NCBI GenBank assembly: GCA_020639315.1
Contig: JACKGM010000001.1
Coordinates: 374,767 to 438,766, forward strand
DNA: 64,000 nucleotides
Reading direction: 5' to 3'
DNA from: Candidatus Nomurabacteria bacterium
GTDB lineage: Bacteria; Patescibacteriota; Saccharimonadia; JAGOAT01
Shown: positions 3,173 through 49,000 of the stretch, in pieces
Numbering within the stretch: position 1 is the first letter of the stretch
Layout of the letters: each line of letters begins with the position of its first letter
Position numbers and translations under genes: made by a program
Notes under the pieces: generated by a model
Database searches by the model: none
The model's input: the letters and a program-made list of their open reading frames with translations, nothing else
What the model was told of the DNA's origin: nothing

Positions 3173-3790
3173 ATGAAAGTAGCATTAACCAAAAAACAGC
3201 GTAAGGTTCTAGATTTTATCAATAAGTTTATAGAAAAAAATGGTTATTCTCCGTCTTTTCGGGAGATCGGTAGAGGTCTCAAGCTGAGTTCGGTTGCTAC
3301 AGTCGCTCAGCATATTAGAGCGCTTGAGAAGAAGGGAATGATCAGCAAAGACAACAATGCTGCCCGTTCTATCTTGCCAGTCGAAGATGATCAATTGCTC
3401 GAGAGTGGGATTTTCTTACCAATCATGGGTAGCATTGCTGCCGGTACACCGATTGCAGCAGTAGCTGATGGGAGTGAGACACTCGAGGTGCCATCATTTA
3501 TGATTAGCGGTAATAACAACTATGTCTTAAGGGTCAAGGGTCAAAGTATGATTGAGGATGGGATATTTGATGGAGATTATGTGGTGATCAAGGAAAATCA
3601 AGCACCCAGAGATGGTGAAGTAGTAGTAGCCCTGATTGACGGAGGGGAAGTAACTCTCAAAAGGATTTATCATGAGGCGAATAGGATTAGGTTGCAACCA
3701 GCCAATAGTACGATGGAGCCAATCTATGTCGACAAGCAGACCAGTCTAGATATTCAGGGTGTAGTAGTCGGGGTAATCCGTAAGTATTAG
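3173..3790 (+). CDS. lexA: LexA repressor (S24 self-cleaving peptidase)
   Basis: N-terminal winged HTH (FREIGRGLKLSSVATVAQHIRALEKKGMI), the cleavage region IAAGTPI, and the S24 catalytic motifs VKGQSM and a later K (EVTLKRIY). Start at 3173 is preferred because GGAGG at 3163-3167 lies 5 nt upstream; the ORF opens at 3161. Confidence 0.9.
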   Translation: MKVALTKKQRKVLDFINKFIEKNGYSPSFREIGRGLKLSSVATVAQHIRALEKKGMISKDNNAARSILPVEDDQLLESGIFLPIMGSIAAGTPIAAVADGSETLEVPSFMISGNNNYVLRVKGQSMIEDGIFDGDYVVIKENQAPRDGEVVVALIDGGEVTLKRIYHEANRIRLQPANSTMEPIYVDKQTSLDIQGVVVGVIRKY

Positions 3791-3842
3791 GGTCAAATTA
3801 CAACCTTTTGCGTAGCCTTTTGGCGTGTTATAATACCTCTTG

Positions 3843-6533
3843 ATGAAACTTAAGAGGTTTGGTAGTCTCCTGGCCAGGAGTGGCTTAATATCCTTGGTGC
3901 TTTTGATGGTGATCAATTTGGCTTTGCCATTGGTGACTAGTCAGGTCAGATTAGATCAGGATGTCATCAGTGATAATCATGCGATCATTCTAGGAAAAGT
4001 GATACCCCGGGTGGATGCGGCCTGTGTGATTGACGGAGAAAATACTGATCAAGAAAGTGAAGAGGCTTGTCAAGATGCTGGAGGTCAGTGGCTATCAAGC
4101 TTAGAGGATCAAGAAGGCGGGGAAATAGACACCTGTTACCAAGGGGGACTATCACTGGGTTGGATTATCTGTCCTATTATTGAAGGGTTTACAGGGGTAT
4201 TAAATTTTGTAGAGGATCAACTAGTAGATGCCCTGGAGAATGACCCAAAGGGTATAGAGGGTACCTATGATGCATGGGTCGTTTTTCGTGATATTTCGAT
4301 AGGGGGCTTAGCTATCGTGGTAGTTTTTATGATTATTAGTAGCATATTAAGGCCAAGTGGAGATGCTGGTAAGTCTTATGATCTTAAAAGGACACTGCCT
4401 AGATTGTTTATAGCATTTGTGGCAATCTATCTATCTTTTACCATTAGCAATCTTATTTTGGATGTAGGCAATGTATTAGCGGAAATAATTAGAACTGTAA
4501 TGTTGAGGTTGCCAGGATTTGGTGGCGATGCCGGCAGGGTGAAAATATTTGATTATAGTGGTGCTGGACTGGGCTTGATACGGTCAATTGTAGATAGCGC
4601 AGCTTTATTAATAGGAATGTATTTCTTGATGACAGGTTTGCTTGGTACCGCGGTAATCGGAGTCTTGTTACTATTTTTTACAGTTGCAATAAGGAAGATA
4701 TTGGTTATACTTCTCGTCTTGTTTTCACCAGTTGCACTTTTACTTTTTGTGTTACCGCAAACCAATAGTATGTATAAAAAATGGTTTGAGAATATCTGGA
4801 GATTAAGTTTAATGTACCCCATGGTGATTGGGATTATCTATGGCTCTGAGTATGTTGCATTTTTGATTGCGAGCCAAAAAAATAGTGCTGATCAGGGAGC
4901 CGTCACGGATTTGAGCTCCTATGTAGCATTTGTTGTTAAGATTGCTCCACTATTTTTGATACCAGCTACATTTAAGATGGCGGGATCATTGGTCAACCTT
5001 GCTACCAATAAGGTGAGCGGTTTACAGAATGCAGGTAAAAACAAGTTAAATTCAGCTATTAATAGAACACCTTATATTGGTTCTGATAGTCTACAGAGGA
5101 AAGCTAGGAAGGCCAATAAGGATAAATATCGACAGGAAAAGTTTCAGAGAGCTGTATCTGGCAACTTAAATCCAGAGGAATCAAGTAGATTAAAACGAAG
5201 ACTGGGAATGTGGTCGGCTGGTGTTGGCATTAAGGATCTTGCTCGTGGTGAGGTTAAAGAAAATACACCTGAGGCCGCAGCAATTACGAGATTTGTAAGC
5301 GAATCGGATGAGATTAAGAGACGAGAGAGAAAAGAACAATATCAAGTACACACTAATAATCTAGTTGGCGACGATCTAGAGGTTTATCAGAATCTAATCG
5401 TGATGCAGCAACTATTTCGTGATATGCATGGTATTGAAGATGGTAGGAAGTTTACAGATGCTGAGCAGAGAGGTTTTATAGATTTCTATAATGGCGCAGT
5501 AGATCCTAGGCATCAGGTTGATGAAGATAGAATTCGTAGAGTTAGCAAGGCTGCGAGAATCAAATTTGATGATTTCATGTCACTAGATGGAAATCTCTCG
5601 ATCGAGGTTCTTGATAAAATGTTTGAAGGTAAGAAAGTTGACTCTATTAAGGCGCTGAACAATGCTATGATTCAGGATCCTAGTGCTGGGGGTATTGGAT
5701 TTAATATCAAGCATCCTCCAAGTTTATCCGAAAATCAGGTAGGTGCTTTATTTGCCGATATGTCTCTGGGAAAATATCGGGGATGGGCTAAGGAAAATAT
5801 GGGTCAAATGATTGGGTATGGTGCTGATAAATTGACTGCTACAGAATTCTTGGAACAAAAGAAGCAAGGATATGATATGATGGCTGAAAGGATTGAGGCA
5901 GAAACAGATCCTGCCAAGAAAGCTAAGCTTGTGAATGACTTTGTAAAAGCAGCAGAAAAAGCAGCATCTGATCCGAAGGCTGTATCAGCGGGTTATACAG
6001 ATGAAAAAGGACAACATATTATTGCTACCCTTGGGCGGATACATGCATCGCCAGCAGATATAGACTCTTTTAAGACTAAATTAGAAAACACACAACAAGG
6101 ATTGCCTCAATCATCTAGCCCTGTATCACCTTCATCATATATGACTTTAGACATTCAAGAAAGAATTTCCCGGGGAGAAGGAGGGATGTATAGTGCTGTT
6201 GGAACACCCGGAATTACTATGCAGGAGCGGGTTAATACTGTTGTTTCAACTGCTCAAGCTATCAATAATCCATACTTGAGAGATAGTGCCAATGCTACAC
6301 AACTAAGTAAGGGTGTTGCTAGACAAGCGGCAGCATTGATAGAAACCACCAGTCCAGCTGGGATTAAAGGTCAGATGACACAGGCTGAGTTTGTTACTAG
6401 GCATGGAGGGGCATTTAGTACTCCTGCAGAGGCTATAGATGCCTACGATCAATTGAGCAGTGTGATAGCAAGCATGGATGTAGATAGGAGTAGGACTACG
6501 GGTGATATTGTAGATGCAAAGTTTAGGGTTTAG
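3843..6533 (+). CDS. large polytopic membrane protein with a ~480-aa C-terminal soluble domain (function unknown; topology resembles TrbL/VirB6, unproven)
   Basis: N-terminal signal/anchor, a Cys-containing acidic segment, then about 7 hydrophobic spans and a long charged C-terminal half. TGtTATAAT at 3826-3834 lies 8 nt before the ATG. Confidence 0.55.
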   Translation: MKLKRFGSLLARSGLISLVLLMVINLALPLVTSQVRLDQDVISDNHAIILGKVIPRVDAACVIDGENTDQESEEACQDAGGQWLSSLEDQEGGEIDTCYQGGLSLGWIICPIIEGFTGVLNFVEDQLVDALENDPKGIEGTYDAWVVFRDISIGGLAIVVVFMIISSILRPSGDAGKSYDLKRTLPRLFIAFVAIYLSFTISNLILDVGNVLAEIIRTVMLRLPGFGGDAGRVKIFDYSGAGLGLIRSIVDSAALLIGMYFLMTGLLGTAVIGVLLLFFTVAIRKILVILLVLFSPVALLLFVLPQTNSMYKKWFENIWRLSLMYPMVIGIIYGSEYVAFLIASQKNSADQGAVTDLSSYVAFVVKIAPLFLIPATFKMAGSLVNLATNKVSGLQNAGKNKLNSAINRTPYIGSDSLQRKARKANKDKYRQEKFQRAVSGNLNPEESSRLKRRLGMWSAGVGIKDLARGEVKENTPEAAAITRFVSESDEIKRRERKEQYQVHTNNLVGDDLEVYQNLIVMQQLFRDMHGIEDGRKFTDAEQRGFIDFYNGAVDPRHQVDEDRIRRVSKAARIKFDDFMSLDGNLSIEVLDKMFEGKKVDSIKALNNAMIQDPSAGGIGFNIKHPPSLSENQVGALFADMSLGKYRGWAKENMGQMIGYGADKLTATEFLEQKKQGYDMMAERIEAETDPAKKAKLVNDFVKAAEKAASDPKAVSAGYTDEKGQHIIATLGRIHASPADIDSFKTKLENTQQGLPQSSSPVSPSSYMTLDIQERISRGEGGMYSAVGTPGITMQERVNTVVSTAQAINNPYLRDSANATQLSKGVARQAAALIETTSPAGIKGQMTQAEFVTRHGGAFSTPAEAIDAYDQLSSVIASMDVDRSRTTGDIVDAKFRV

Positions 6534-19356: not shown

Positions 19357-20481
19357 GTGCTAATTCGTCGAAATAAATCCCAGAATCCAAAATCTACTGC
19401 TAGTTATCAAAATCAAAGTAAATCCAGACAATTCCGATTGTTTTTGCCGATGCTTTATCTAATGCTTATTGTATTTAGTCTCAACTTCCAATTACTTCCT
19501 AGTATAATTTCCACTACTGAGCACAGTCAGGCTCAGAGTTTCTCAAAGTCAGTAGATAATTATGGGTTTTTAGAGGTTACCTCTGATCTTTCTAGGTTGG
19601 CACCAGTAGCAGAGCTTTCTACTCAAGTCAATAACGAAGAGCAATCACTTGATCAAAATGATTCTACCAGCCTAGATACGACTGGTGGGGATTTTATTAC
19701 CAAGCCCAAGCCAGTCTTGACCGAAGGTAAAGCCACACGGGATGTTGTAGACTATCAGGTCAAAGAAGGGGACACCGTTTCGACAATTGCGAGTCAGTTT
19801 GGCCTGACTACAGACACTGTCAGATGGGCTAATCAGCTTGAATTGGACCAAGTGCTAGAAGTCGGAGAGACTCTCAAGATTCTGCCGATTGATGGTGTTT
19901 TGCACTGGGTTGAACCCGGGTCTGGTGATACTCTAGATCAGATTTCAGCCTTGTATAAGGTAGATAAAAAAGTGATCGTTAGCTATAACCAGATTCTTGA
20001 TAATAAACTTGAAGATGATATGGTACTAGTAGTTCCTGGAGGTCAGATTGAAGAAGTGGAGGCTAGTCAAGAGACTACCCAAAACCAAGTAGCTCTTGAT
20101 CAGCCCGCAACCACTCAGACATATAACCAGCCAGTACAGGCCAATAGTACTGCTCCAGAAGCTTTGACTAGCTATAGCGGTGGATATAATAACTATGCCT
20201 ATGGGTATTGCACCTGGTATGTGGCTAATCGTCGAGCTGTACCGGCTAGTATGGGCAATGCAGCCAATTGGTATTATGCGGCTCAAGCAGCTGGGTTCGG
20301 AGTAGGCAGTCAGCCAGTAGTAGGGGCAGTGGCTTGGACTCCAGCTGGTTATTATGGACATGTTGCCTATGTCGAAGCAGTTGAAGGAAGCCAAGTGTAC
20401 ATCTCGGAGATGAATTATGCAGGCTGGGGAGTAGTGTCTTATCGCTGGGTACCAGCTAACGCTTTCAGCTATATTTATTAA
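19357..20481 (+). CDS. secreted peptidoglycan hydrolase with two LysM domains and a C-terminal CHAP domain
   Basis: LysM domains: YQVKEGDTVSTIASQFGLTTDTVRWAN and HWVEPGSGDTLDQISALYKV. CHAP domain: YGYCTWYVANRR...GHVAYVE. N-terminal anchor/signal present. Confidence 0.8.
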   Translation: MLIRRNKSQNPKSTASYQNQSKSRQFRLFLPMLYLMLIVFSLNFQLLPSIISTTEHSQAQSFSKSVDNYGFLEVTSDLSRLAPVAELSTQVNNEEQSLDQNDSTSLDTTGGDFITKPKPVLTEGKATRDVVDYQVKEGDTVSTIASQFGLTTDTVRWANQLELDQVLEVGETLKILPIDGVLHWVEPGSGDTLDQISALYKVDKKVIVSYNQILDNKLEDDMVLVVPGGQIEEVEASQETTQNQVALDQPATTQTYNQPVQANSTAPEALTSYSGGYNNYAYGYCTWYVANRRAVPASMGNAANWYYAAQAAGFGVGSQPVVGAVAWTPAGYYGHVAYVEAVEGSQVYISEMNYAGWGVVSYRWVPANAFSYIY

Positions 20482-22076: not shown

Positions 22077-22153
22077 TGGTGGAGTATGGCGGATTCGAAC
22101 CGCCGACCTCTTGCATGCCATGCAAGCGCTCTAACCAACTGAGCTAATACCCC
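22077..22153 (-). tRNA. tRNA-Ala (GGC)
   Basis: The reverse complement reads GGGGTAT TA GCTC AGTTGGTTA GAGC G CTTGC ATGGCAT GCAAG ... GGTTCGAATCC ... ATACTCC A CCA, including the G3:U70 Ala identity pair. Confidence 0.9.
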
Positions 22154-22224
22154 TATGAAATGTCGCATAGATATTATAGCATAATAGAATATCTATACGA
22201 GATTACTCCGATTTTGGCTTTGGG

Positions 22225-22271
22225 TTGAGGGGTCTATAGCTGAAGTAACTCCAGTTTTAACTTTGGGCTAA
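22225..22271 (+). repeat. 47-nt conserved element, copy 1 (second copy at 32520-32566)
   Basis: ttgaggggtctatagctgaagtaactccagttttaactttgggctaa matches 32520-32566 at 45 of 47 positions. Both copies lie just upstream of a sigma70-like promoter. Confidence 0.8.
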
Positions 22272-22289
22272 CAAAGCAGAACATTGATA

Positions 22290-22318
22290 TTGACTTTTAG
22301 GGATTGGCGGGGGATAAT
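22290..22318 (+). promoter_or_regulatory. sigma70-type promoter (TTGACT-17-GATAAT) of the LPSTG-sortase-GT2 operon
   Basis: TTGACT at 22290-22295 and GATAAT at 22313-22318. Confidence 0.5.
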
Positions 22319-22373
22319 AGGAAAGTAAATAAAAAATTTAATTGTAAAGTAATAAGGTAGAAGGAGATTATCA

Positions 22374-22601
22374 ATGTCAGGTAAAGATAATGGAACAGTT
22401 TTGGGTGTAGCGACAACAGTAGGGGGAGCTGGTACAGTATTGGGTGCATCTACCTCTGGGGAAGGCCTCGGTGCAATTACTAGTTTACCGAGTACTGGCG
22501 GTGAGATCGCATTGCATCTTGCTGTGCTAGTTGCTTTGGGCTGTGGTTTGATCATTTTGACTAGTAATTTGATTACTTATCTAGCAAAAAAGTATCAATA
22601 G
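22374..22601 (+). CDS. Gly/Thr-rich LPSTG micro-protein (75 aa), putative sortase substrate without a recognisable signal peptide
   Basis: AAGGAG Shine-Dalgarno. The C-terminus has SLPSTGGE, a hydrophobic span (IALHLAVLVALGCGLIIL) and a basic tail (KKYQ), which is a classical cell-wall sorting signal. The N-terminus MSGKDNGTVLGVATTVGGAGTVLG is not hydrophobic. Confidence 0.7.
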   Translation: MSGKDNGTVLGVATTVGGAGTVLGASTSGEGLGAITSLPSTGGEIALHLAVLVALGCGLIILTSNLITYLAKKYQ

Positions 22602-22610
22602 GCTAGATCT

Positions 22611-23198
22611 ATGAATAGGCTAATCTTTAGCCTAAAACTCGTATTAGTTTACCTAGTAGTGACTGCTTTGTTTTTTGGTGATGAAATTTATACAAAGTAT
22701 CAAGAGTATAAGGTTACTGGTGAGAATCAAGAGCAGTTGGCACAGCTCGAACAAGACGCTTCATTCGAACAAGAATATATTCCTGCTAAGCCAGCCCAGA
22801 TTAGAATCGAGAGATTAGGCGTAGACCTGAAAGTATTGGATGGTGAGTATGATGTCACTAATAGTACTTGGACACTTAGTCAAGATAGCGCTCATTATGC
22901 TTTACAAACCAGTCTACCAAATTTTGATTATGGCAATACCTTGATCTATGGTCACAATCTAGATAATATTTTTGGGAGCCTCAAAGATCTAATTATAGGT
23001 GATATTTTGATTTTAAGCGATTCATCTGGAGTAGAGATCACTTATAAGTTTGTGGGATTTGATTTACTTACACCAAATGACACTTCAATATTTTATTATC
23101 AGGGTGACCCCCAATTGTCACTTTTGACCTGTCATGGATTATTTGATAGCGAGAGATTATTATCAAAATTTCAACCTGTAGGCATTGTATCGAGATGA
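22611..23198 (+). CDS. sortase (transpeptidase)
   Basis: N-terminal TM, IRIERLGVDLKVLDG, catalytic His in GNTLIYGHN, catalytic Cys in LSLLTCHG (TLxTC-type), and a downstream Arg. Confidence 0.85.
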   Translation: MNRLIFSLKLVLVYLVVTALFFGDEIYTKYQEYKVTGENQEQLAQLEQDASFEQEYIPAKPAQIRIERLGVDLKVLDGEYDVTNSTWTLSQDSAHYALQTSLPNFDYGNTLIYGHNLDNIFGSLKDLIIGDILILSDSSGVEITYKFVGFDLLTPNDTSIFYYQGDPQLSLLTCHGLFDSERLLSKFQPVGIVSR

Positions 23199-24460
23199 TA
23201 GATTTTATATTTGGTTTTCTTTCTATACTTGGAATAGTTACACTTTTGAGGGTGACATTATTTTTTATAGGTAGTGATATTTATGAAATTAAGCGAATTT
23301 TTAAACGCCGAAAATTAAGTAAAGTGATTAATTTTCATCCAAGAAATTATCAAGTAACAGTCTTAATCCCTGCACATAACGAAGAGGCAGTGATTATTCG
23401 TTGCCTAGAGTCAGTATTTAAAAGTGAATACAAAAGGATCAAGGTAGTAGTAGTCAATGATGGATCAACTGACCAGACTAAGACTCTAGTCAACAACTAT
23501 AAAGCCTTAAATAAACTTAGTAATCTTAAGCTAATCAATAAGGAGAATTCAGGTAAAGCTGATTCATTAAATTTAGCCCTAGGCAATGTTCGCTCAGCAT
23601 TAGTAATGGTTCTGGATGCAGATTCAATTGTCCAACCAGATACAATCTCGATTGCTGTTCGTCATTTTGATAACACCAAAGTAGTTGCAGCTGCTACCAA
23701 TGTCAGGATTACTCATAATCTAAATAGTATAGTAGGTGCAGTTCAACTTTTAGAGTTTAGCTCATCTTTTCGTTTCAAGCGAGCACTCACAACATTTAAT
23801 ATGGAGTATATTATTGGGGGTATGAGTTTTTTTCGCTATAAGACTCTTAAAAAAGTTGGTTTTTTTGATACTGATACTGTGACTGAGGATATTGATTTGA
23901 CCCTCAAGCTGGTTAGTCTTGGCAATAAGCAGAATCGGATTATTTTTGCGGGAGATTCAATAACCTACACAGAAGGAGCGGGGAGTTTCCGGGCATTACT
24001 CAAACAGAGGTATCGTTGGAAGTATGGAAGGTTTCAGACTTTTGTAAAAAATCGCAAACTATTTTTTAATCGAGATCCGAAATACAGTAGGAGTTTGGCT
24101 TTTTTCTATTTGCCATGGTCACTTGTGCAGGAGTTAATATCCTTACTCGATCCTTTTATTATAATTTTTTGGTTAGTAGTATCAATTTATTTGGGCAACT
24201 ACGGAACCTTTAGGTTTATTATTATTTTTTATACAGTCTTTGTGTTGTTGATTACGATGACTGAGGAAAGGCTGAATTTAGCTGCAAGATTTAGGTTGGT
24301 GGTCTACGCCCCATTGGGCTATTTGTTTTTTTTGACCGTAGGGCTGGTAGAGTACTTAGCATTGATTAGATGTATATTGAACTATCGTAAGATTGTTCAA
24401 CTGGAGCAAGAGATTGGTGGCTGGGATCATATCCAGCGTGATGGTGGTAGTTTAGGGTGA
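23195..24460 (+). CDS. membrane-embedded family-2 glycosyltransferase, processive-synthase type (PgaC/IcaA/NodC/BcsA-like)
   Basis: VNDGSTDQT, LDADS, TEDIDLTLKL and QRYRWKYG (QxxRW), with N- and C-terminal TM spans. The start ATG overlaps the sortase stop (ATGA at 23195-23198). Confidence 0.8.
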   Translation: MIDFIFGFLSILGIVTLLRVTLFFIGSDIYEIKRIFKRRKLSKVINFHPRNYQVTVLIPAHNEEAVIIRCLESVFKSEYKRIKVVVVNDGSTDQTKTLVNNYKALNKLSNLKLINKENSGKADSLNLALGNVRSALVMVLDADSIVQPDTISIAVRHFDNTKVVAAATNVRITHNLNSIVGAVQLLEFSSSFRFKRALTTFNMEYIIGGMSFFRYKTLKKVGFFDTDTVTEDIDLTLKLVSLGNKQNRIIFAGDSITYTEGAGSFRALLKQRYRWKYGRFQTFVKNRKLFFNRDPKYSRSLAFFYLPWSLVQELISLLDPFIIIFWLVVSIYLGNYGTFRFIIIFYTVFVLLITMTEERLNLAARFRLVVYAPLGYLFFLTVGLVEYLALIRCILNYRKIVQLEQEIGGWDHIQRDGGSLG

Positions 24461-25267
24461 TTAGTTAGACTGGATTAGGCTAATAGGTGTATCAAGACTA
24501 ATCAGGGCTCCTAAGAAGTTCTCCAGAAGCCGGGTGTCTTGGCTATCTCCAGGAATTTGATCCCAAAATGAATAGTCAGTCAACCAAACAGTTTGCAAAC
24601 GATTCTCTAGATCCAGCACTATCTCAAGACTTAGTCCTTGATTGTCCAGTAAGTAGGCAAGGTTAAGTATTTGATTGAGCGACTTGAAACGTTGATCTAG
24701 GCTAACACTTATTAGCCGCCTCTGATGATAATAGACTTTTGCAATGCCTAGCTGAAGGATTACCTCAAATCTATCAGTTCTTAGCACTTTTATTAAGTCA
24801 TAGACCTCTTGTAATTGGCGGCTAGTGATTGGGCTAGTTATTTCTAAATCTAGGGTGACTGACTGGTTTGGATTTAAATCTAAGGCCAAATCTTGGAGAT
24901 TCTTTGACCAATTTTGAGTTTCAAGCTGGATAGTTTGAGGATTGATCGATCCCAAGTAGTTGGTATTAGATAGATGATAGGTATTGTTTAGTTTAAGCTT
25001 AGGACAGATTAGAGAGGTCAGGTCTTCGATTTTGTAGGTTGCAATTTGGCTGATTTCATATTCGGGGGTGGACTTAATAGCTAGTGGTTGCTCAGAACAG
25101 TATTTGCTATAAGAGTCATCTATCTGGTATTGGCTGGATTTCTTATCAATTCTGAGCTGGTTACTAAAGTGGTGATAGGTAATAATGACCGATATAGTAC
25201 CGACTGCAAAACCAAACGCGATCAAGCTGGGTAGTAATATATCAGCCCTAAACCTAGGTAATCGCAT
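24461..25267 (-). CDS. N-terminally anchored hypothetical protein (268 aa)
   Basis: TM span LLPSLIAFGFAVGTISVIITY. The start ATG directly follows the stop of the upstream GT2 gene (TAAATG). Confidence 0.5.
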   Translation of the reverse strand: MRLPRFRADILLPSLIAFGFAVGTISVIITYHHFSNQLRIDKKSSQYQIDDSYSKYCSEQPLAIKSTPEYEISQIATYKIEDLTSLICPKLKLNNTYHLSNTNYLGSINPQTIQLETQNWSKNLQDLALDLNPNQSVTLDLEITSPITSRQLQEVYDLIKVLRTDRFEVILQLGIAKVYYHQRRLISVSLDQRFKSLNQILNLAYLLDNQGLSLEIVLDLENRLQTVWLTDYSFWDQIPGDSQDTRLLENFLGALISLDTPISLIQSN

Positions 25268-26500
25268 TTATATCCCTTTCCTCTCCCATTTTTGCCATTG
25301 TAGTTGTCGCTTTCTGATACTCAGATAAACACTTTGCATTAATGCTAGATATTCAACCCAAACCAAAATATAAATCAGTGGCCAGAGATAGATCCAAGAT
25401 AGGCCAAACCTGAGTTTATGTCTAGGTACCTCAAAGATTGCTAGAATAATAAAACCTATCGCAAAGAAACTAATACTAAGAGCTAGCCCCAAAGGATTAC
25501 GCTTGATTACATTATCTATAAAAAAATAACTCAGCGAGATTGGCTCGATCAATAGCTGAAACTCTAGAAGAACTGAACTGGGTAATAGTCCCCAGGTCAA
25601 GAGTTTGTTGTGTTGGGGTTTTCTTGAGAAGAACATTTCACGATATTTGTCAAAAGTTTCAAATCGACCCTTTTTCCAACGAATTCTTTGTTTGACTAGA
25701 CCATAGATACTACTTGCTCCTTCGGTATAGCAAACTACATCACTAGCATACTTACTTCTTAGGCCATGAAATTGTGTTCGAAGTGACATTTCTATGTCCT
25801 CAGTAAGATTTGCGGTGTCAAACTCTCCAAATTGATCAAAAGTCAATGATTTACGGAAGGCTGCACAGGCTCCACCAAAGATATATTCGATACCTAGAAG
25901 TGAATTAGCCTTCTTGGCATAAAAGCCAAAACTGTATTCAAAGTATTGGAGGTAACCAATCAGGCTTTGGTAGTTGGCAATCTCTACTCGTCCTACCAAG
26001 CCTGCCAGCTCAGGGTCTTGGAAATGGATAGAGAGATGATATAAAGCTTGGTCGTCTAGAATTGAGTCCGCATCCATTGTCATAATTATCTCGGAGGTTG
26101 CCAGCTTGAGCCCTTGATTCAGGGCATGACCTTTACCAGCATTGGCTTGATAGTGATAAATAATTTTTTCATCTGGATGCTTTTTGATAAAAGTTTTGAT
26201 AATTTTATCTGAGTCGTCAGTCGATCCGTCATTGATGACTATTATTTCTAGGTTTGGGTAATGGTTGTCGATTACAGACTGAATAGTTTTGGTGATCCCG
26301 ACCGCTTCATTCCAGGCTGGGATGATTACACTGATTGAGACGGGAGGGGAATTGATCTGTTGATAACGTTTTGCTTTCAAGATTTCTTTGAGGTCATAGA
26401 TAGGTGCAATCAGCATTACAAACAAATAGCGGATTAATAGGCTGGCAGTGCCAACAATCACGATTAGTCGGAGGGACTGATAAAGAAAATCAATAATCAA
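25268..26500 (-). CDS. membrane-embedded family-2 glycosyltransferase, processive-synthase type
   Basis: INDGSTDDS, MDADS, TEDIEMSLR and QRIRWKKG (QxxRW), with flanking TM spans. It overlaps the upstream gene by 4 nt. Confidence 0.8.
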   Translation of the reverse strand: MIIDFLYQSLRLIVIVGTASLLIRYLFVMLIAPIYDLKEILKAKRYQQINSPPVSISVIIPAWNEAVGITKTIQSVIDNHYPNLEIIVINDGSTDDSDKIIKTFIKKHPDEKIIYHYQANAGKGHALNQGLKLATSEIIMTMDADSILDDQALYHLSIHFQDPELAGLVGRVEIANYQSLIGYLQYFEYSFGFYAKKANSLLGIEYIFGGACAAFRKSLTFDQFGEFDTANLTEDIEMSLRTQFHGLRSKYASDVVCYTEGASSIYGLVKQRIRWKKGRFETFDKYREMFFSRKPQHNKLLTWGLLPSSVLLEFQLLIEPISLSYFFIDNVIKRNPLGLALSISFFAIGFIILAIFEVPRHKLRFGLSWIYLWPLIYILVWVEYLALMQSVYLSIRKRQLQWQKWERKGI

Positions 26501-27318
26501 GTTGCTTCTCCTGAACCAAACTGGTAGATTTGGATTGGGTTTGAGTCAATAATGATAGATAGGCTGTAGGATTGAGGATTAGTTGAGGGTTGATAAAGAG
26601 TATCAATACGGGTTAGATTGTAGACTTGACGATTTATTTGCTCCGATTGGCCATTCTCTAGAATCAAGGGTGAGCCAAGCTCTAGATTTGTAATCGAATC
26701 TATTGATTCTTGCTCAGCCAAAGTAATAATGGTTTGGTCAGGAGTATGCCAGTAAAGATTTTGCCCATAGTCTAGATAGATTTTATCAAGGGTCACTGGG
26801 TAGGTAACTTTCTCCACAGATAAGGCTAAGGGGTTAATCAAATAAATGCTCGGTCGGCTTTGATCGAAAGTTAGAGTTAGGTTGGGGTTTTTATCAATAA
26901 TCTTTACCCCCTGACTGATTGGTAGATCGATTGCCAAGCTCTTTTCAATACTTGATCCGAAGATCATCAGTGTGACCCCACTAATCAATAGGTAGAAACC
27001 GAGTTGGATTAGTCGCCCAAGACTTAAATGTTGAGTGAAGTTTGTTTTTATTTTTTTTGGCTTATTCTTGTTACTAAAGCCAAGTTTTGGCTTTAGTAGT
27101 CTGGTAAAAGTTTTTACGAAGATATTAAGGATTAGACTAAGCAAGATAAAGCTTAGTAAAATGTCAAGCAATACGCCATGGCTAAGTCTAAGAGTATGGT
27201 AGGTGGAAATCAGATCAGATAACATCAAGGGTGCAGCGGCAACTAATATTAAAAATAGTGCTTGGAGCAAGAATCTCCAGACTAGAGTTACCAAGGATAT
27301 TATAACGTCCTCCTTCAA
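26497..27318 (-). CDS. polytopic/bitopic membrane protein (hypothetical)
   Basis: Three hydrophobic spans, then a ~150-aa soluble part. The start is uncertain: TTG at 27318 has no Shine-Dalgarno, and the ORF overlaps the upstream ORF by 104 nt. Confidence 0.45.
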   Translation of the reverse strand: MKEDVIISLVTLVWRFLLQALFLILVAAAPLMLSDLISTYHTLRLSHGVLLDILLSFILLSLILNIFVKTFTRLLKPKLGFSNKNKPKKIKTNFTQHLSLGRLIQLGFYLLISGVTLMIFGSSIEKSLAIDLPISQGVKIIDKNPNLTLTFDQSRPSIYLINPLALSVEKVTYPVTLDKIYLDYGQNLYWHTPDQTIITLAEQESIDSITNLELGSPLILENGQSEQINRQVYNLTRIDTLYQPSTNPQSYSLSIIIDSNPIQIYQFGSGEAT

Positions 27319-27874
27319 TATCTAGACTCAAGCTACGATTGCTAAGGTTATTTATAGTAAAGCTAGACTGGTTGGGAGCTAGTTGGATTTGGTAAACATT
27401 TAGCATTTGGTTATTTGGGCTAAGGTTCGAAATGTTAAATATGTTCGGCATAGCTTGAGTAGTAGGCAATACTGGCCCAAGAGGATCAACAGTGGTAATA
27501 GGCTCAAGGGGAGGTAAAGGCTGCTCTTCATCAAAGCTAGTCTGGTCGGTAATTGAGGATGTTGACTGGGTAGAGTCATTACTTGGGACACTGGAAGTAG
27601 ATTGGGGATTTGAGCTTGAGCTAGGGTTGGAGTTTTCTGCCGGTTGACTATTAATGATACTAGCCTGGTCGGAATTCGCAGCTTGGGCATTTTGATTGGA
27701 TGGTTTCTGATTATTTGAAGTCTCGATTTTAACAAAGTTTGGCAAATCGGCTAGATCAAAGCGTAACTTGACTGGGCTTCTGATCGCTAGATCTAAGCCA
27801 ATCCCCAATGTGAATAGTAATACCATATGCAGGATTAATTTTCGCTTTTTAAATGTTTTGCTTGGCAACTTCAA
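27215..27874 (-). CDS. secreted/anchored Ser-Pro-Gln-Asn-rich low-complexity protein (hypothetical)
   Basis: AAGGAGG Shine-Dalgarno 5 nt before the TTG start, an N-terminal anchor (LILHMVLLFTLGIGL), and a long S/P/N/Q-rich region. Confidence 0.5.
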   Translation of the reverse strand: MKLPSKTFKKRKLILHMVLLFTLGIGLDLAIRSPVKLRFDLADLPNFVKIETSNNQKPSNQNAQAANSDQASIINSQPAENSNPSSSSNPQSTSSVPSNDSTQSTSSITDQTSFDEEQPLPPLEPITTVDPLGPVLPTTQAMPNIFNISNLSPNNQMLNVYQIQLAPNQSSFTINNLSNRSLSLDIEGGRYNILGNSSLEILAPSTIFNISCRCTLDVI

Positions 27875-27992
27875 TTTGACCTCCTTTGTCCCTCAATTCT
27901 CTTAAGTTTATTATATATGATCCTGTAAGTTTATTATATATGATCCTGGGTTGGTTGGCTAGTGATTATATACCTATAGATTGTGTGAAGTT

Positions 27993-28009
27993 TCGCGAAC
28001 AGTTCGCGA
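27993..28009. promoter_or_regulatory. 17-bp perfect palindrome TCGCGAAC-A-GTTCGCGA (candidate operator), copy 1
   Basis: Exact inverted repeat in the divergent control region between 27874 (-) and 28097 (+). Identical copies occur at 42297-42313 and 42342-42358. Confidence 0.6.
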
Positions 28010-28096
28010 CAACTTGGGGATTATAAATACTGGGCTTGCTATTTTCCCTCAGTAGTTTACAATTAGGTTTGTATCAGTAAAAATAGGAGGGAGAAA

Positions 28097-28333
28097 GTGT
28101 CAGATATTACAACAGGTCAGGTTTTGGGTGTGTCAACAGTATTGGGTGGAGCCGGGGCAGTAGCGATCAACCTAGGAGATAGTGGTTCAGTCCTAGGGGA
28201 TAGTATTACCAGTGGAGTGGGAGTATTGCCTAGTACCGGTGTTGCGATCGGGATTTTGATTGCAGTAGCCGTGGGTTTAATCTTAGCTTTATTGACTGTT
28301 ACTCGCTTGCGCACTAAATCATCAGAGAAGTAA
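28097..28333 (+). CDS. Gly/Ser-rich LPSTG micro-protein (78 aa), paralog of 22374-22601
   Basis: AGGAGGG Shine-Dalgarno with a GTG start. The N-terminus MSDITTGQVLGVSTVLGGAGAV parallels the first micro-protein. The C-terminus has VLPSTG, a TM span and the basic tail RLRTKSSEK. Confidence 0.7.
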   Translation: MSDITTGQVLGVSTVLGGAGAVAINLGDSGSVLGDSITSGVGVLPSTGVAIGILIAVAVGLILALLTVTRLRTKSSEK

Positions 28334-28351
28334 TCAATCGACTGAATTATT

Positions 28352-29713
28352 TTGAGTCTAAATGGGGTATTCGATCTGATTGCTATGATCAACTTCGTGT
28401 TGGTCTTGTTGGGTATTAGCGTATACAGTTATATATTTTTTGCAGCAATTTACTACAACCGATTATATAAAAGTTTGATTAAGGGCCATGATAGATTGGA
28501 TCAGGACAAACAAATTGAGAGTACCAATCAGGTAGAAGCTAGTCCATTTTTATCTGATATAAGGATTAGTACTAATTATCTACCTAGTATTACAATTATC
28601 ATACCTGCCTACAATGAAGAGCAGGTTATTATTCAGTGCCTAAATAGTATTGCCAAGCTAGAATATCAGAAGCTCAAAGTAGTAGTCGTGGATGATGGTT
28701 CGATAGACCAGACGGCAGAACTAGTCCGAGGGTTTATTGATCAGCATCGGCTCAGTCCAAATCCATACCAGATCGACTTTTACTTACTTTGTCAGGCCAA
28801 TCAAGGTAAGGGCGCAGCACTCAATAATGCGATTTTTGATTATACCGATAGTGAGATAGTCGGATGCCTGGATGCTGATAGTGAGATTGATCCTCAAGCT
28901 ATTGCCAATGCCATCAAACACTTCAATCTAGACAATTCAATTATTGCGGTTTCTAGCTATATAGATGTGATCAAGAAGCCAAGTTTGTTTTATTGGCTCC
29001 AAAAGATTGAATATCTGATTGCTTTTGGCCTCAAGAAAGGTGTGACTAGGGCAAACATGGATTATTTATTGCCTGGTCCGGGGTCATTTTTTCTCAGAGA
29101 AAGTATTCTTGAAATCGGAGGCTATGATCATGATACAATTACTGAAGACCTTGGCTTGTCGCTCAAGATCGTAGATTCTGAACTGGAAAATAAAAAGCTG
29201 TATTTTGCCAGTGATGTGATTACTCGGACTGAGCCAGTCTCAAGCTGGCAAGACTTGTATCGCCAAAGAAAACGCTGGATTAGAGGGTGGTTTCAGAACC
29301 TCTTGAGATATCGCAATCTGCTTTTAAGCACCGACAAAAAGCATAGCTGGCAACTGACAGTATTCTACCTTCCCTATCTAGTGATCAGTCAATTTTTTGG
29401 TGTATTTCAGATCAGTATTCTAGTAGTAACGATGGTGATTGGTCTGATTGCTGGTAACCCTTGGATTTTGGTCATCCAGATAGTCTCAATCCAGGCCTTG
29501 GTGCTATATTTTATCTTTAGCGATGTTAATCTTGGGCCCAAATCAGAACGCTGGAAATTAAGCCTTGGATCATTCTCTGTGATCGGGATGCTAGTGGGGC
29601 TGAATCTTTTGCAGGCTGGGATTACGGTCGGAGAATATGGGAGGATGCTCTGGGGAATAGTCAGGCCAGATATCAAAGATTCTGGCAGATGGCAACATGT
29701 CTCCCGGGGGTGA
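28352..29713 (+). CDS. membrane-embedded family-2 glycosyltransferase, processive-synthase type
   Basis: VDDGSIDQT, LDADS, TEDLGLSLK and QRKRWIRGW (QxxRW), with N- and C-terminal TM spans. Confidence 0.8.
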   Translation: MSLNGVFDLIAMINFVLVLLGISVYSYIFFAAIYYNRLYKSLIKGHDRLDQDKQIESTNQVEASPFLSDIRISTNYLPSITIIIPAYNEEQVIIQCLNSIAKLEYQKLKVVVVDDGSIDQTAELVRGFIDQHRLSPNPYQIDFYLLCQANQGKGAALNNAIFDYTDSEIVGCLDADSEIDPQAIANAIKHFNLDNSIIAVSSYIDVIKKPSLFYWLQKIEYLIAFGLKKGVTRANMDYLLPGPGSFFLRESILEIGGYDHDTITEDLGLSLKIVDSELENKKLYFASDVITRTEPVSSWQDLYRQRKRWIRGWFQNLLRYRNLLLSTDKKHSWQLTVFYLPYLVISQFFGVFQISILVVTMVIGLIAGNPWILVIQIVSIQALVLYFIFSDVNLGPKSERWKLSLGSFSVIGMLVGLNLLQAGITVGEYGRMLWGIVRPDIKDSGRWQHVSRG

Positions 29714-29734
29714 GTATGCTATACTAGAGGTAGC

Positions 29735-29811
29735 GGCTGAGTAGCTCAGGTGGTTAGAGCACCAGATTCATAAACTGGAGGTCACAGGTTCAAATCCCGT
29801 CTCAGCTACCA
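29735..29811 (+). tRNA. tRNA with CAU anticodon (Met or Ile2)
   Basis: GGCTGAG TA GCTC AGGTGGTTA GAGC A CCAGA TTCATAA ACTGG ... GGTTCAAATCC ... CTCAGCT A CCA. The fold has a G1:U72 pair and single mismatches in the anticodon and T stems. TGcTATACT at 29717-29725 lies 9 nt upstream. Confidence 0.75.
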
Positions 29812-46033: not shown

Positions 46034-49000
46034 ATGAGACAAAAGTTGAATTTGTTTGGTAAATTAGGGGCAAGAAAGTCAATAATTACTTTGACCGGGT
46101 TAGGACTGGTCATAGCCGGAGTGGCCAATATTGCTTCAGTCAGCGGTCTTAATACCCAGACTAGCAATAATCAGACTCTGAGCAAGGATGTCAACCCGAT
46201 AGTCAGCGGTAACCCTGACTATACTGCCACCACTGTAGATGCTGGGGGCGAACTCCAGTGGATTATAGAATACGGTAATGATACGGGTAGTATAGTAGAC
46301 CCGGTCACAATCACTGATGATATTACTGGTGGTCAACAGTATGTAGCTGGTAGCTTAGATGTCCCAATTGGCTGGGAAGAAGGGTATTCAACTGATGCTG
46401 GCAATACGTATAGCCCAGTCGAGCCGGCTGCGAGTAGTGTCAACTCAATTCAAGCCACAGGCAATCGAATTACCTCTCCTGCTACAGGTATCAATGGTCT
46501 AATACCTGCCCCAGTGGCTTCGGTCAATCAGGATAAATCAGTCACCCATGGCGATGGTTTTGTCCCAATTGTTTACCGTAATGGAGATATCTATCGAGTT
46601 TACAATATTTATCATCACAATTCCTGGGAAGATGGGGACGCTACAGGTCTAATCAATTGTTTTGATGTCAATGTCGGTGACTATTGTGCTGATACTAGTT
46701 TTGATTATACTGGTGGCCTTTACACTCCCTTGACAGGAGTGGATGTCCAGACTTCTTGGTTCCCCGAGGGGCAACAGGCAGTGATAGATGGCAAGTTTTA
46801 TTATGCAGTTCATCAAGAGAATACCAGCAATGTCGGGGTAGGTTGTCTGGATTTGGCGACTGGTGTGGACTGTGCTACCAACCCATATACTCAGATCAGT
46901 AATAATGCTCCTTGGTATACCTATGCAGACGCAAGTAAGAATCACCATGCTGGTATTGAGGGGCCAGCGGTTGTCGGGGATGTGATTTATTTCTTTGTCC
47001 GTCATAGCGATGGTAAGCTCTATATGCATAGCTACAATACTACTACTGGAGTAGCAAACACGACAGGAGTTCAAATTGTTACCACTGGTACTTATGCTAA
47101 TAATGTTGCTGGGAATGAAGGCGAAATGTATGTACCGTATGAAGTCGTGGGAACAAAAATATACTTTACTATTAACTTCCAGATAAGTGATGATACTAAC
47201 GGTATCCAATATGCCGAATTTGGATGTTTTGATACAGCTAGCAATACTGCTTGTTCTGGTTTTTCTAGCACTAAACTATTACAGTTTTCTAACCAGAAAT
47301 CTAATGTGGGTACACAGACCTGGGTTTATTATTCAGTATTTGGACTCTATGATACATCTGGTAGTGTAGTGGCCGTATGTACTACTGCAAACCTAGAATT
47401 GATGCTTACTGGGTATATTAACTCGACCTTTACAGGATATCCAAAATCAGAATGTTATAGCCAATCAGGATCTAAATATAATGGATCAGAAATAGCTCCT
47501 TTTGCAACATTTTGGGAGAATGATGTCAACCCAAGTCTGCCAGCAACAGAAGGTACAAGTATAGGTGTCGATGGAGATGTCTTGGTGGAAGAGTTATATA
47601 TTGCTAATGGTACCCAAGGTATATCAGGTAATCGTACATATTTTTCAATTCGTACTACTGATCAATATGATAATGTTAATCCGTATGGAGCAGTAGCTTG
47701 TTATGACTTTACAACTCAGTCTGGTTGTGCCAACTTTGGTAATGGTGGACTGGCACAATTCCCATCAATCAATGGAGGTGCTACCAAAGACTATGGCTAT
47801 GACTATGATCAAGTCAGTGGCTGCATGTGGGGGCTAGGTGATGAAGGTTATCTCTGGAGTTTTGACGCTGAGACTGGTGCTAGCCCATGTAGCTCAATCT
47901 CAGAAACTATTCAGCTGGACCTCACCCCTGACAATTTCTACTGTGATGGACAAAGTGACAATTATATCCAAGGTTGGGATAGTCTGACTATCTTGGAGCC
48001 TGGAACTGGTGTTCCTAGTACAGTCAGCTACACAGTGACTGTCTATGATGTCAACAATAACCCCATATCTGGGTATCAAAATGTAGCGCCAGATGCCAAC
48101 AATCAGCTAGACCTCAGCGCGATTGATAGTACGACCTACTCGAGCTTGAGAGTAGAAGTGACAGCTAGCGATAGCAATAATGGTACCAGCTGGACCAATA
48201 CTATACCAGTGATGCTGACATTTAGCGCTACTCACAATCCACAGATTTGTTATAGCACAATCGTGCCTGATAATTGTGATATTTCTTCAGCTGATAATAC
48301 TGCAGTAGTTGATGCCGATGGGACTATCATCAGTGTCAGTGATAGTATTGAGATAGTCAATCAGTCCAATTGTGATCCTGGTAGAATCGGCAATCAGGTC
48401 TGGAATGATCTTGATCATGACGGGGTATTTGACCCAGGCGAGCCCGGGATACCTGGAGTGACGATCAAGCTCTACCAAGGTATTTGTGCAGATCACACCA
48501 CTTCTTCTACCTCTATGGCTACCACCACTACCGCTTCAGATGGCACTTATTACTTCAATAGTCTACCAGTCGACCAGAATTATTATGTGGTAGTAGACAG
48601 ATCTAGTAGCAGTGTATTGACCAATTATACCAATTCTACTGGTCCCGATCATACTGCTGATGGCAACTCCAAGTCTGAAGATTGTTACGAGGTCAGTTTG
48701 ACTACCGCTAGTCCCAGCAACCTGACCGCAGATTTTGGTTACTATGCTGGACGGATTGGTAATCAAGTCTGGGTAGATTCAGACCGAGATGGTATTTTCG
48801 ATGCTGGAATTGAGAATGGAGTCGCTGGAGTATCAATCGATCTTTATCAAGGTACTTGTGACCAACACACTACTAGTTCAACAATTCTTGCCACAGAGGC
48901 AACGGCTTCAGACGGTACATATTACTTTGATGGTTTAGCTTTGGATCAATCGTACTATGTGATTGTAGATCGGTCTGGAAGCAGTATTGCTAACTATCAA

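Follow-up and report, generated by a model that had tools for sequence, protein, structure and literature searches.

A putative envelope module of LPxTG micro-protein, sortase and processive glycosyltransferase in Saccharimonadia

Gram-positive sorting of LPxTG proteins by class A, D and E sortases relies on a membrane-anchored transpeptidase with a His-Cys-Arg active site and on substrates that end in an LPxTG motif, a hydrophobic helix and a basic tail, with the substrate gene adjoining the sortase gene. These traits recur in an interval (22154–29734) of a 64,000-nucleotide stretch of contig JACKGM010000001.1 from a Candidatus Nomurabacteria bacterium of the class Saccharimonadia, one of the Candidatus Saccharibacteria (this whole stretch is hereafter the window). 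The interval encodes one sortase, three family 2 glycosyltransferase (GT2) synthases carrying the QxxRW motif, and two paralogous LPSTG micro-proteins. Unlike their Gram-positive counterparts, the putative substrates are only 49–87 aa long, with no signal peptide or folded domain, and the sortase falls outside the curated classes and is coupled to a GT2. Our preferred reading, held tentatively and at a little under even confidence, is that the interval contains one full and one derived copy of an envelope module of micro-protein, sortase and processive GT2, with a third synthase operon between them.

The synthases resemble those of synthase-dependent exopolysaccharide (EPS) systems, namely the poly-N-acetylglucosamine (PNAG) systems PgaCD/PgaB and IcaAD/IcaB, hyaluronan synthases (HAS), BcsA, and the chitin and NodC synthases. 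They share the GT2 motifs and a transmembrane (TM) channel, a best family match to PgaC_IcaA, and the fold of HAS, BcsA and Chs. The systems of PgaB, IcaB and PelA find a further parallel in relatives of the window, where carbohydrate esterase family 4 (CE4) and glycoside hydrolase genes neighbour the module. In contrast to all of these, the conserved partners here are a sortase and an LPxTG micro-peptide, and the window itself has three paralogous synthases and no deacetylase.

A sorting transpeptidase genetically tied to EPS glycosyltransferases is found in the PEP-CTERM/exosortase (EpsH) system (PMC1569441). The enzyme here is instead a PF04203 sortase paired with LPxTG, and no exosortase was detected among the open reading frames (ORFs) of the interval by Pfam or NCBIfam. 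In the secretion system termed type IX (T9SS) the PorU 'sortase' joins cargo C-termini to the amino-acylated, CE4-deacetylated linking sugar of anionic lipopolysaccharide (A-LPS), a pathway of PorU, VimE and VimA (PMC7468200). PorU is an unrelated protein of the gingipain family, it acts at the outer membrane of diderms, on large cargo proteins with a C-terminal-domain signal; the use of a sugar amine by the sortase described here is a proposal.

Very small proteins have also been linked to sortases. In Actinobacteria the srtA-linked SafA, a TM protein of 52 aa, binds the TM region of SrtA and blocks its cleavage by signal peptidase (PMC9282373). Like the micro-proteins, it is a single-pass protein of ~50 aa with phylum-wide conservation, whose gene adjoins that of the housekeeping sortase. 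However, safA lies 3' of srtA and its product has an exoplasmic FPW motif and no sorting motif, whereas the micro-protein genes lie 5' and encode LPxTG, with no detectable similarity between the two. The NCBIfam models NF058583 (LAXTG small protein) and NF053819 (EF0750 family) likewise describe very small proteins with a sortase motif, but matches to the micro-proteins reach only 12–15 bits against cut-offs of 47–65, so the micro-proteins are not members. NF058583 (LAXTG_small_WW; cut-off 65) gave 12–13 bits for two relatives and no match for the window proteins.

A sortase family is common in the candidate phyla radiation (CPR) (Méheust et al., PMC6744442). No description of the present module was found in Pfam, NCBIfam or the full-text literature, a corpus that mostly excludes subscription papers, which agrees with a preliminary description of this DNA that knew of no system of such composition. 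The component kinds are all known; the new elements are their conserved combination and a micro-substrate that lacks a signal peptide.

Recurrence of the module and its micro-proteins

The full copy, unit 1, lies on the plus strand and consists of micro1 (22374–22601), a 75-aa tail-anchored LPSTG micro-protein, the membrane-anchored sortase (22611–23198) and GT2a (23195–24460), a predicted processive, membrane-embedded synthase whose start codon overlaps the sortase stop codon (ATGA, 23195–23198). In the derived copy, unit 2, micro2 (28097–28333, plus strand), a 78-aa LPSTG micro-protein with a GTG start, is followed directly by GT2c (28352–29713, plus strand), the third QxxRW synthase. The preliminary description had two synthases directly preceded by a micro-protein, which is true of GT2c but not of GT2a, as the sortase intervenes between it and micro1.

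The arrangement of unit 1 recurs strongly across Saccharimonadia. A sortase-seeded scan fetched 80 metagenomic loci with sortases 30–46% identical to that of the window. A micro-ORF lies on the same strand within 400 bp 5' of the sortase in 51 of the 70 loci with room for one, and micro-like ORFs reach 1.54/kb in this slot against 0.05/kb elsewhere in the 80 loci, a ~30-fold enrichment. Of the unique loci that leave room to either side of the sortase, those with a micro-protein have a GT2 adjacent to the sortase in 33 cases and no GT2 in 1, while those without have an adjacent GT2 in 1 and none in 6. The association of micro-protein and adjacent QxxRW GT2 gives p = 1e-5 by a Fisher test that ignores, and is uncorrected for, phylogeny. 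Direct pairs of micro-protein and GT2, the pattern put forward in the preliminary description, are rare by comparison and were seen only in the window, in loci L001–L004 of near relatives, and in one other genome, L172.

The loci differ in architecture. In type A, which includes unit 1 of the window, a micro-protein with mostly LPNTG or LPSTG is encoded 5' of the sortase and a co-directional GT2 follows 3', its start codon often touching or overlapping the sortase stop codon. Type B micro-proteins carry mostly LPATG and the 3' gene is a convergent GT2 of another subfamily (GT2') with DAD, TED and QNLRW motifs. Type C has neither micro-protein nor GT2; its 5' gene encodes a secreted LPxT[GS] protein of full length that ends in the same '..VLG.ST..LPxTG' sequence, and its 3' gene a 330–365-aa multi-TM protein without a Pfam match. 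Type C sortases form a single sister clade in a neighbour-joining (NJ) tree, found in L088, L093, L098, L126, L138 and L163 (around position 5000), where the motif of the upstream protein is LPxT[GSN]. The window clade is separate from a large 'MY' clade in the same tree, so the association of micro-protein and GT2 spans deep branches. Judged from the type C architecture, the micro-protein may have originated when a conventional substrate encoded beside the sortase was reduced to its sorting end.

The matches listed from a contig scan with the GT2 alignment were mostly from unrelated phyla. Among them, only L008 repeated the module, and no such micro-ORF was seen by the closest GT2s of other phyla. 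In L007, a Patescibacteria genome from outside the Saccharibacteria, a 56-aa single-TM ORF without LPxTG (3780–3950) lies directly 5' of the closest GT2 homolog among these matches (38% identity), with no sortase nearby.

On sequence evidence, micro1 and micro2 are real genes. Strong Shine-Dalgarno sites precede both, AAGGAG 7 nt upstream of micro1 and AGGAGG at proper spacing upstream of micro2. An 88% homolog of micro1 is found 5' of the sortase in L005 and L176, and an 83% homolog of micro2 (with LPNTG) 5' of GT2c in L001–L004. Against these relatives, micro1 and micro2 have ratios of nonsynonymous to synonymous substitution rates (dN/dS) of 0.09 and 0.12, respectively, similar to those of neighbouring enzymes. 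Micro1 is identical in sequence to a 'Candidatus Saccharibacteria' hypothetical protein, and independent gene callers predicted equivalent genes of 57–87 aa in other assemblies, with the gene uncalled in the annotation of L173. Conserved and seemingly translated micro-ORFs are thus confirmed in relatives (83–88% identity, dN/dS ~0.1), and an origin as chance ORFs or pseudogene remnants was rejected in view of their Shine-Dalgarno sites, their dN/dS values and their conservation.

The micro-proteins fall outside all Pfam and NCBIfam families. Micro2 scores below the cut-offs of two anchor models (PF00746, 14.8 vs. 20; TIGR01167, 14.5 vs. 15.9) and micro1 gives no match, while some micro-proteins of relatives pass TIGR01167 (16.9 and 17.0 vs. 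15.9). As short low-complexity proteins cannot reach significance in searches, the family was defined by context and motif, as ORFs of 49–90 aa that encode LPxTG followed by a TM helix and a basic tail. When the micro-protein alignment was used in a word-index search, it gave 4 clusters only, and a HMMER search with the profile against 1.84 billion representatives returned only the family itself (2 matches).

Micro1 consists of 37 Gly/Ala/Val/Thr-rich residues with VLG repeats, LPSTG, a TM helix of 22 hydrophobic residues and the tail KKYQ. Micro2 is 49% identical to it and passes from LPSTG through a TM helix to the basic tail RLRTKSSEK, so both proteins have the C-terminal LPxTG, hydrophobic stretch and basic tail of a sorting signal. 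The 57 curated family members follow a common pattern of MY or MS, VLG, LPxTG, TM helix and basic tail, with, at the median, a total length of 58 aa and 18 residues ahead of the motif (range 9–49; most 9–25). This pre-motif segment is nearly uncharged and contains 19% Gly, 16% Ala, 14% Val and 10% Thr. Of the 57 members, 54 keep LPxT[GS] and 45 the N-terminal MY, while the rest of the exported peptide varies; 44 of 53 unique sequences begin with ATG-TAY ('MY') behind a Shine-Dalgarno site.

The window proteins belong to a rarer 'MS..QVLG' subgroup with 2–3 VLG repeats, and L172 has four 'VLGATAPA'-like units. In the window variants the pre-motif peptide comprises 37–43 weakly hydrophobic residues, and that of micro2 lacks a basic n-region. 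The preliminary description gave a Gly-rich peptide of ~45 aa; a peptide of such length is an unusually long variant in a family whose norm is 9–25 residues. In most members the 9–25 residues before LPxTG are too few to accommodate a signal peptide. Judged from length in the 57 members, the family has no N-terminal Sec signal peptide, and a cleavable one was rejected because too few residues precede LPxTG.

Sortase and synthases

The sortase matches PF04203 with 56.4 bits, against a gathering score of 26.6, and its catalytic residues H115, C174 (in TLxTC) and R182 are invariant in 27 homologs. It reaches none of the NCBIfam cut-offs for classes A–F and GN (best scores: SrtD, 34 of 140 bits; class GN, 34 of 158; class D, 30 of 165; class F, 19 of 166). 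A phmmer search of the PDB with the window sortase alone gave no match. With a sortase profile the matches were only weak and scattered among classes D, C, A and E, the best being 2LN7 (class D, 4e-9) and 4D70. The family assignment made earlier thus holds, but no curated class can be given, and by these comparisons the enzyme is a member of an unclassified Saccharimonadia clade that is nearest to class D. All its named homologs come from Saccharibacteria or Saccharimonadales. Outside the interval, a sorting-signal scan identified a large LPQTG surface protein (46034–50056, plus strand; 1340 aa) with SdrD_B and DUF11 domains (Pfam), probably a further, conventional adhesin-like substrate of the same sortase.

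GT2a, GT2b (25268–26500, minus strand) and GT2c all pass PF00535, PF13641 and PF13632, so the gene identities of the preliminary description were right for the synthases as for the sortase. The three proteins are 32–33% identical and share D89, D141-A-D143, T230-E-D232 and Q271-R-x-R-W275; the D, DxD, TED and Q(Q/R)xRW motifs are invariant in the three paralogs and 47 homologs. PgaC_IcaA (TIGR03937) is the best NCBIfam match, with 153, 183 and 132 bits for GT2a, GT2b and GT2c, respectively, all below the equivalog cut-off of 422. The XrtG-associated GT2 family (TIGR03111) is second with 94, 92 and 116 bits, below its cut-off of 364. Fold comparison was based on GT2a, whose AlphaFold2 (AF2) model has a predicted local distance difference test (pLDDT) score of 92.4. 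In Foldseek this model best matches hyaluronan synthases (E 1e-16, TM-score 0.65–0.71), followed by BcsA (5e-13) and Chs1 (4e-11), which makes GT2a look self-contained, channel-forming and processive. An assignment of the synthases to the processive, channel-forming type, as first proposed, is supported by motifs in all three and by the predicted fold in GT2a.

The synthases differ in their histories. GT2b is 88% conserved in L001–L004, and its nearest non-CPR homolog among the matches listed is from the actinobacterium Aestuariimicrobium (L009 3764–5128; 35% over 406 aa). Actinobacteria are known hosts of cultivated Saccharibacteria, and exchange of a GT2b-like gene between host and epibiont is thus conceivable. 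The lineage of GT2c is narrow, with homologs at 85% and 46% and then at no more than 39%. L001 and L002 share 99.2–99.5% DNA identity across the minus unit and micro2. Between their GT2c genes (L001 10263–11618, L002 4107–5495) blastn similarity is lost ~270 nt into the gene, and the proteins are 47% identical. The alignment places a recombination breakpoint inside the GT2c gene, resembling a capsule-type allele swap.

Genomic setting and cassette mobility

The interval is bounded on the left by tRNA-Ala (GGC; 22077–22153, minus strand), the insertion point of unit 1, and on the right by tRNA-Met (CAU; 29735–29811, plus strand), both found by ARAGORN and Rfam. ARAGORN, Rfam and the ORF listing place both tRNAs and all nine ORFs where the preliminary description had them, and the gene overlaps it listed, including that of the GT2a start with the sortase stop, also hold. 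Its view of the interval as a single tRNA-bounded island was not borne out. The genes flanking the interval are those of Obg and leucyl-tRNA synthetase (LeuRS). The related assembly GCA_017983775.1 carries, in this order, genes of Obg and a Big_9 protein, then tRNA-Ala, the minus unit, micro2, GT2c and LeuRS, and has unit 1 on another contig among unrelated genes. Because this relative keeps the minus unit and unit 2 between Obg and LeuRS and has unit 1 elsewhere, unit 1 is seen to have relocated separately. The tRNA-Ala region is present in L001 (6018–6122; 92% identical) directly before the minus unit, and the counterpart of window positions 22154–24460, unit 1 with micro1, sortase and GT2a, is at L176 9767–11847. 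On this comparison unit 1 is a three-gene cassette relocated beside tRNA-Ala. A single horizontally acquired island was rejected on the synteny in L001 and the separate location of unit 1; the GC content of the interval is only mildly low (0.35–0.40 vs. 0.43–0.46).

The minus unit lies between the two copies of the module. Its first gene, hyp219 (27215–27874), encodes a Ser/Pro-rich signal-anchored protein that is 46–51% identical in L001–L004 and varies in length. It is followed by hyp273, a membrane protein whose longest ORF (26497–27318) overlaps hyp219 by ~100 nt. Homology to a 245-aa protein of L001 begins at residue 33, and the true start is probably at 27225, giving a protein of 242 aa and an 11-nt overlap with hyp219 as in L001. 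GT2b comes next, and the last gene, hyp268 (24461–25267), encodes an N-terminally anchored protein with a 71% homolog in L001–L004 only. No Pfam or NCBIfam family matches hyp268, and its single-sequence AF2 model is unusable (pLDDT 38.8). All three hyp proteins are confined to near relatives. The stop codons of unit 1 and hyp268 are convergent and abut with no spacer.

The divergent promoter region between the minus operon and micro2 contains a 23-bp unit, TAAGTTTATTATATATGATCCTG, found by repeat search and perfectly duplicated in tandem at 27903–27948. This may represent an operator or result from recent slippage. A candidate sigma-70-like promoter of unit 1 (TTGACT-17-GATAAT; 22290–22318, plus strand) has 10 of 12 consensus matches, with such sites no more numerous than in shuffled sequence, and promoter and terminator scans of the region in general did no better than on shuffled sequence.

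Synthase-dependent EPS systems are usually accompanied by a CE4 protein and a hydrolase. The preliminary description saw no deacetylase partner, and this is correct for the window, where blastp at 1e-3 found no CE4 deacetylase, but not for many of its relatives. In ~28 related loci a secreted PF01522 CE4 protein, in some cases with CBM_4_9 or Big_7, is encoded beside the module, often together with glycoside hydrolase family 10 (GH10). No PgaD, IcaD, BcsB, PilZ or small two-TM partner is present in the window. Peptidoglycan genes are frequent near the module in relatives and include those of MraY, MurB, MurT/GatD and an HTH-MurA-like fusion. The fusion, a protein of ~506 aa with HTH_3 and an EPSP-synthase/MurA-like domain, is encoded directly 3' of the module in L095 (5387–6907, minus strand), L167, L168 and L171, and is found in many Saccharimonadia. 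A LysM and CHAP peptidoglycan hydrolase (19357–20481, plus strand) lies just 5' of Obg in the window and is syntenic in L001.

Proposed mechanism, alternatives and significance

In the mechanism we propose, the micro-protein would be a minimal sortase substrate without a signal peptide, inserted tail-first so that the peptide is outside and the basic tail inside. This N-out, C-in topology is suggested by the lack of room for a signal peptide, the neutral N-terminal segment and the basic tail, and it would put LPxTG at the outer face of the membrane within reach of the sortase. The adjacent sortase would then cut between the Thr and Gly of LPxTG and move the peptide, of 37–43 residues here and 9–25 in most relatives, to an amine acceptor in the envelope. 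The co-expressed HAS/PgaC/BcsA-like synthase would polymerise and extrude a glycan, for which the best family match and the presence of CE4 and GH10 beside the module in relatives may point to a GlcNAc-based product. The peptide may be linked to the wall, holding or organising the polymer, or may be ligated to de-N-acetylated sugar amines of the polymer itself. Topology, cleavage, acceptor, sugar and the physical link between peptide and glycan are all predictions; what the analysis establishes are the identities of the genes, the reality of the micro-genes, their recurrent linkage, the fold of the synthase and the mobility of the cassette. The role as anchor or primer of a wall-attached glycan that the preliminary description suggested for the peptide is likewise a proposal.

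That peptide and glycan end in one surface layer and are functionally tied is suggested by the coupling of stop and start codons, the mobility of the cassette and the duplicated micro-protein travelling with a GT2, with which it stays even where there is no sortase (unit 2 of the window, L001–L004 and L172). A more specific version has the sortase joining the LPxT carboxyl group of the micro-protein to the free amines of de-N-acetylated glycan sugars, generated by CE4 in relatives. By analogy this shares its logic with PorU, VimE and VimA of the T9SS (PMC7468200), but we regard it as rather doubtful.

Several observations weigh against the tie between peptide and glycan, which is drawn from genes and their genomic context. 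The linkage statistics come from phylogenetically non-independent loci, and for the LPATG group co-transcription is excluded by the convergent orientation of the GT2. As the 1340-aa LPQTG protein is present, the window sortase is probably not dedicated to the micro-proteins. Conservation of the TM helix, with its mid-helix Gly, and of the tail ARxVAKKxYKA exceeds that of the exported peptide, which fits a membrane partner better than pure cargo. In L111 and L122, FPVAN or FPVAG replaces LPxT[GS] and the sortase and GT2 still follow. Hyaluronan synthases need no secretion partner. Neither the window nor the fetched contigs of a close relative contain CE4 or GH10, so a deacetylated acceptor is not a universal requirement unless encoded elsewhere, and the CE4, GH10 and CBM4_9 proteins of other relatives could equally be an acetyl-xylan esterase and xylanase pair kept by synteny.

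Some of these points would suit a micro-protein that acts as a small membrane subunit or regulator, an alternative we consider possible but unlikely. Through its TM helix and tail it would bind to the sortase, as a SafA-like stabiliser, or the GT2, as an IcaD/PgaD-like activator. LPxTG would be a sortase-cleavable switch or pseudo-substrate coupling the synthase to the status of the sortase or wall, and the cleaved TM remnant might itself be active. The greater conservation of the mid-TM Gly and tail holds across sortases only 30–45% identical, the FPVAG and FPVAN variants keep the gene and its neighbours, and pairs of micro-protein and GT2 exist without a sortase. The L007 ORF, which lacks LPxTG, is placed directly 5' of the closest non-Saccharibacteria GT2 among the matches listed. 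PNAG synthases have IcaD and PgaD as small membrane partners, but these have two TM helices and their genes lie 3' of the synthase. SafA offers a precedent for a small TM protein that binds a sortase (PMC9282373), although its 3' position, FPW motif and lack of a sorting motif do not fit the micro-proteins. Retention of LPxT[GS] in 54 of 57 members, together with the conserved MY and VLG, argues that the exported part and its cleavage matter. Type C loci, moreover, place a full-length LPxTG protein with a signal peptide and the same VLG...LPxTG end in this position, which marks it as a substrate slot.

The same type C protein, with its '...VLG.ST...LPxTG' C-terminus, can be read as a sign that there is no direct link at all, the micro-protein being a minimal or vestigial housekeeping substrate that arose by truncation and decorates peptidoglycan, and its adjacency to a GT2 reflecting synteny of envelope genes. 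In keeping with this, the module of several genomes sits amid genes of peptidoglycan synthesis, the LPATG group has a convergent GT2, the sortase has conventional substrates, and the hyaluronan-synthase-like fold (Foldseek) needs no partner. This reading is nevertheless quite unlikely in our estimate, since the association is found across two deep sortase clades and has outlasted rearrangement, sortase stop and GT2 start codons overlap, and the duplicated micro-protein travelled with the GT2 and not with the sortase. Strong purifying selection and the conserved MY start and tail are also hard to square with a vestige. Far less probable is that the micro-peptide is itself the product, either a fibre joined head-to-tail through the amine of Met-Tyr or a hydrophobic signal released by hydrolysis between Thr and Gly of LPxTG, with the GT2 polymer separate. 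MY is kept in 45 of 57 members despite a variable remaining exported peptide, and the long variants (micro1, micro2 and L172), which start with MS, encode 2–4 tandem VLG-type repeats and resemble a fused polymer. However, there is no Lys pilin motif or folded domain, the sortase is nearest class D, A or E and not clearly class C, and the GT2 linkage is left unexplained. We also know of no precedent for natural head-to-tail polymerisation by a sortase or for sortase-released pheromones.

Saccharibacteria are ultrasmall obligate epibionts whose envelope mediates attachment to the host and is almost uncharacterised. A compact module of sortase, micro-substrate and hyaluronan/PNAG-type synthase points to a specific surface structure in these bacteria. 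The GT2c allele swap between ~99%-identical strains suggests diversifying selection on the polymer, as expected for a surface recognised by hosts or phages. The micro-protein family also fills a gap in annotation, having no Pfam or NCBIfam model and a gene that is sometimes uncalled. If peptide and glycan are coupled, sortase biology would gain signal-peptide-less micro-substrates and possibly a glycan acceptor, and the module would be a monoderm counterpart to the attachment systems of exosortase/EPS and T9SS/A-LPS. If glycan ligation also proves true, it would define a new class of peptide–polysaccharide conjugate, peptide-decorated or cross-linked and tethered to the wall, and a new acceptor for a true sortase, so far confined to Saccharibacteria and the CPR.

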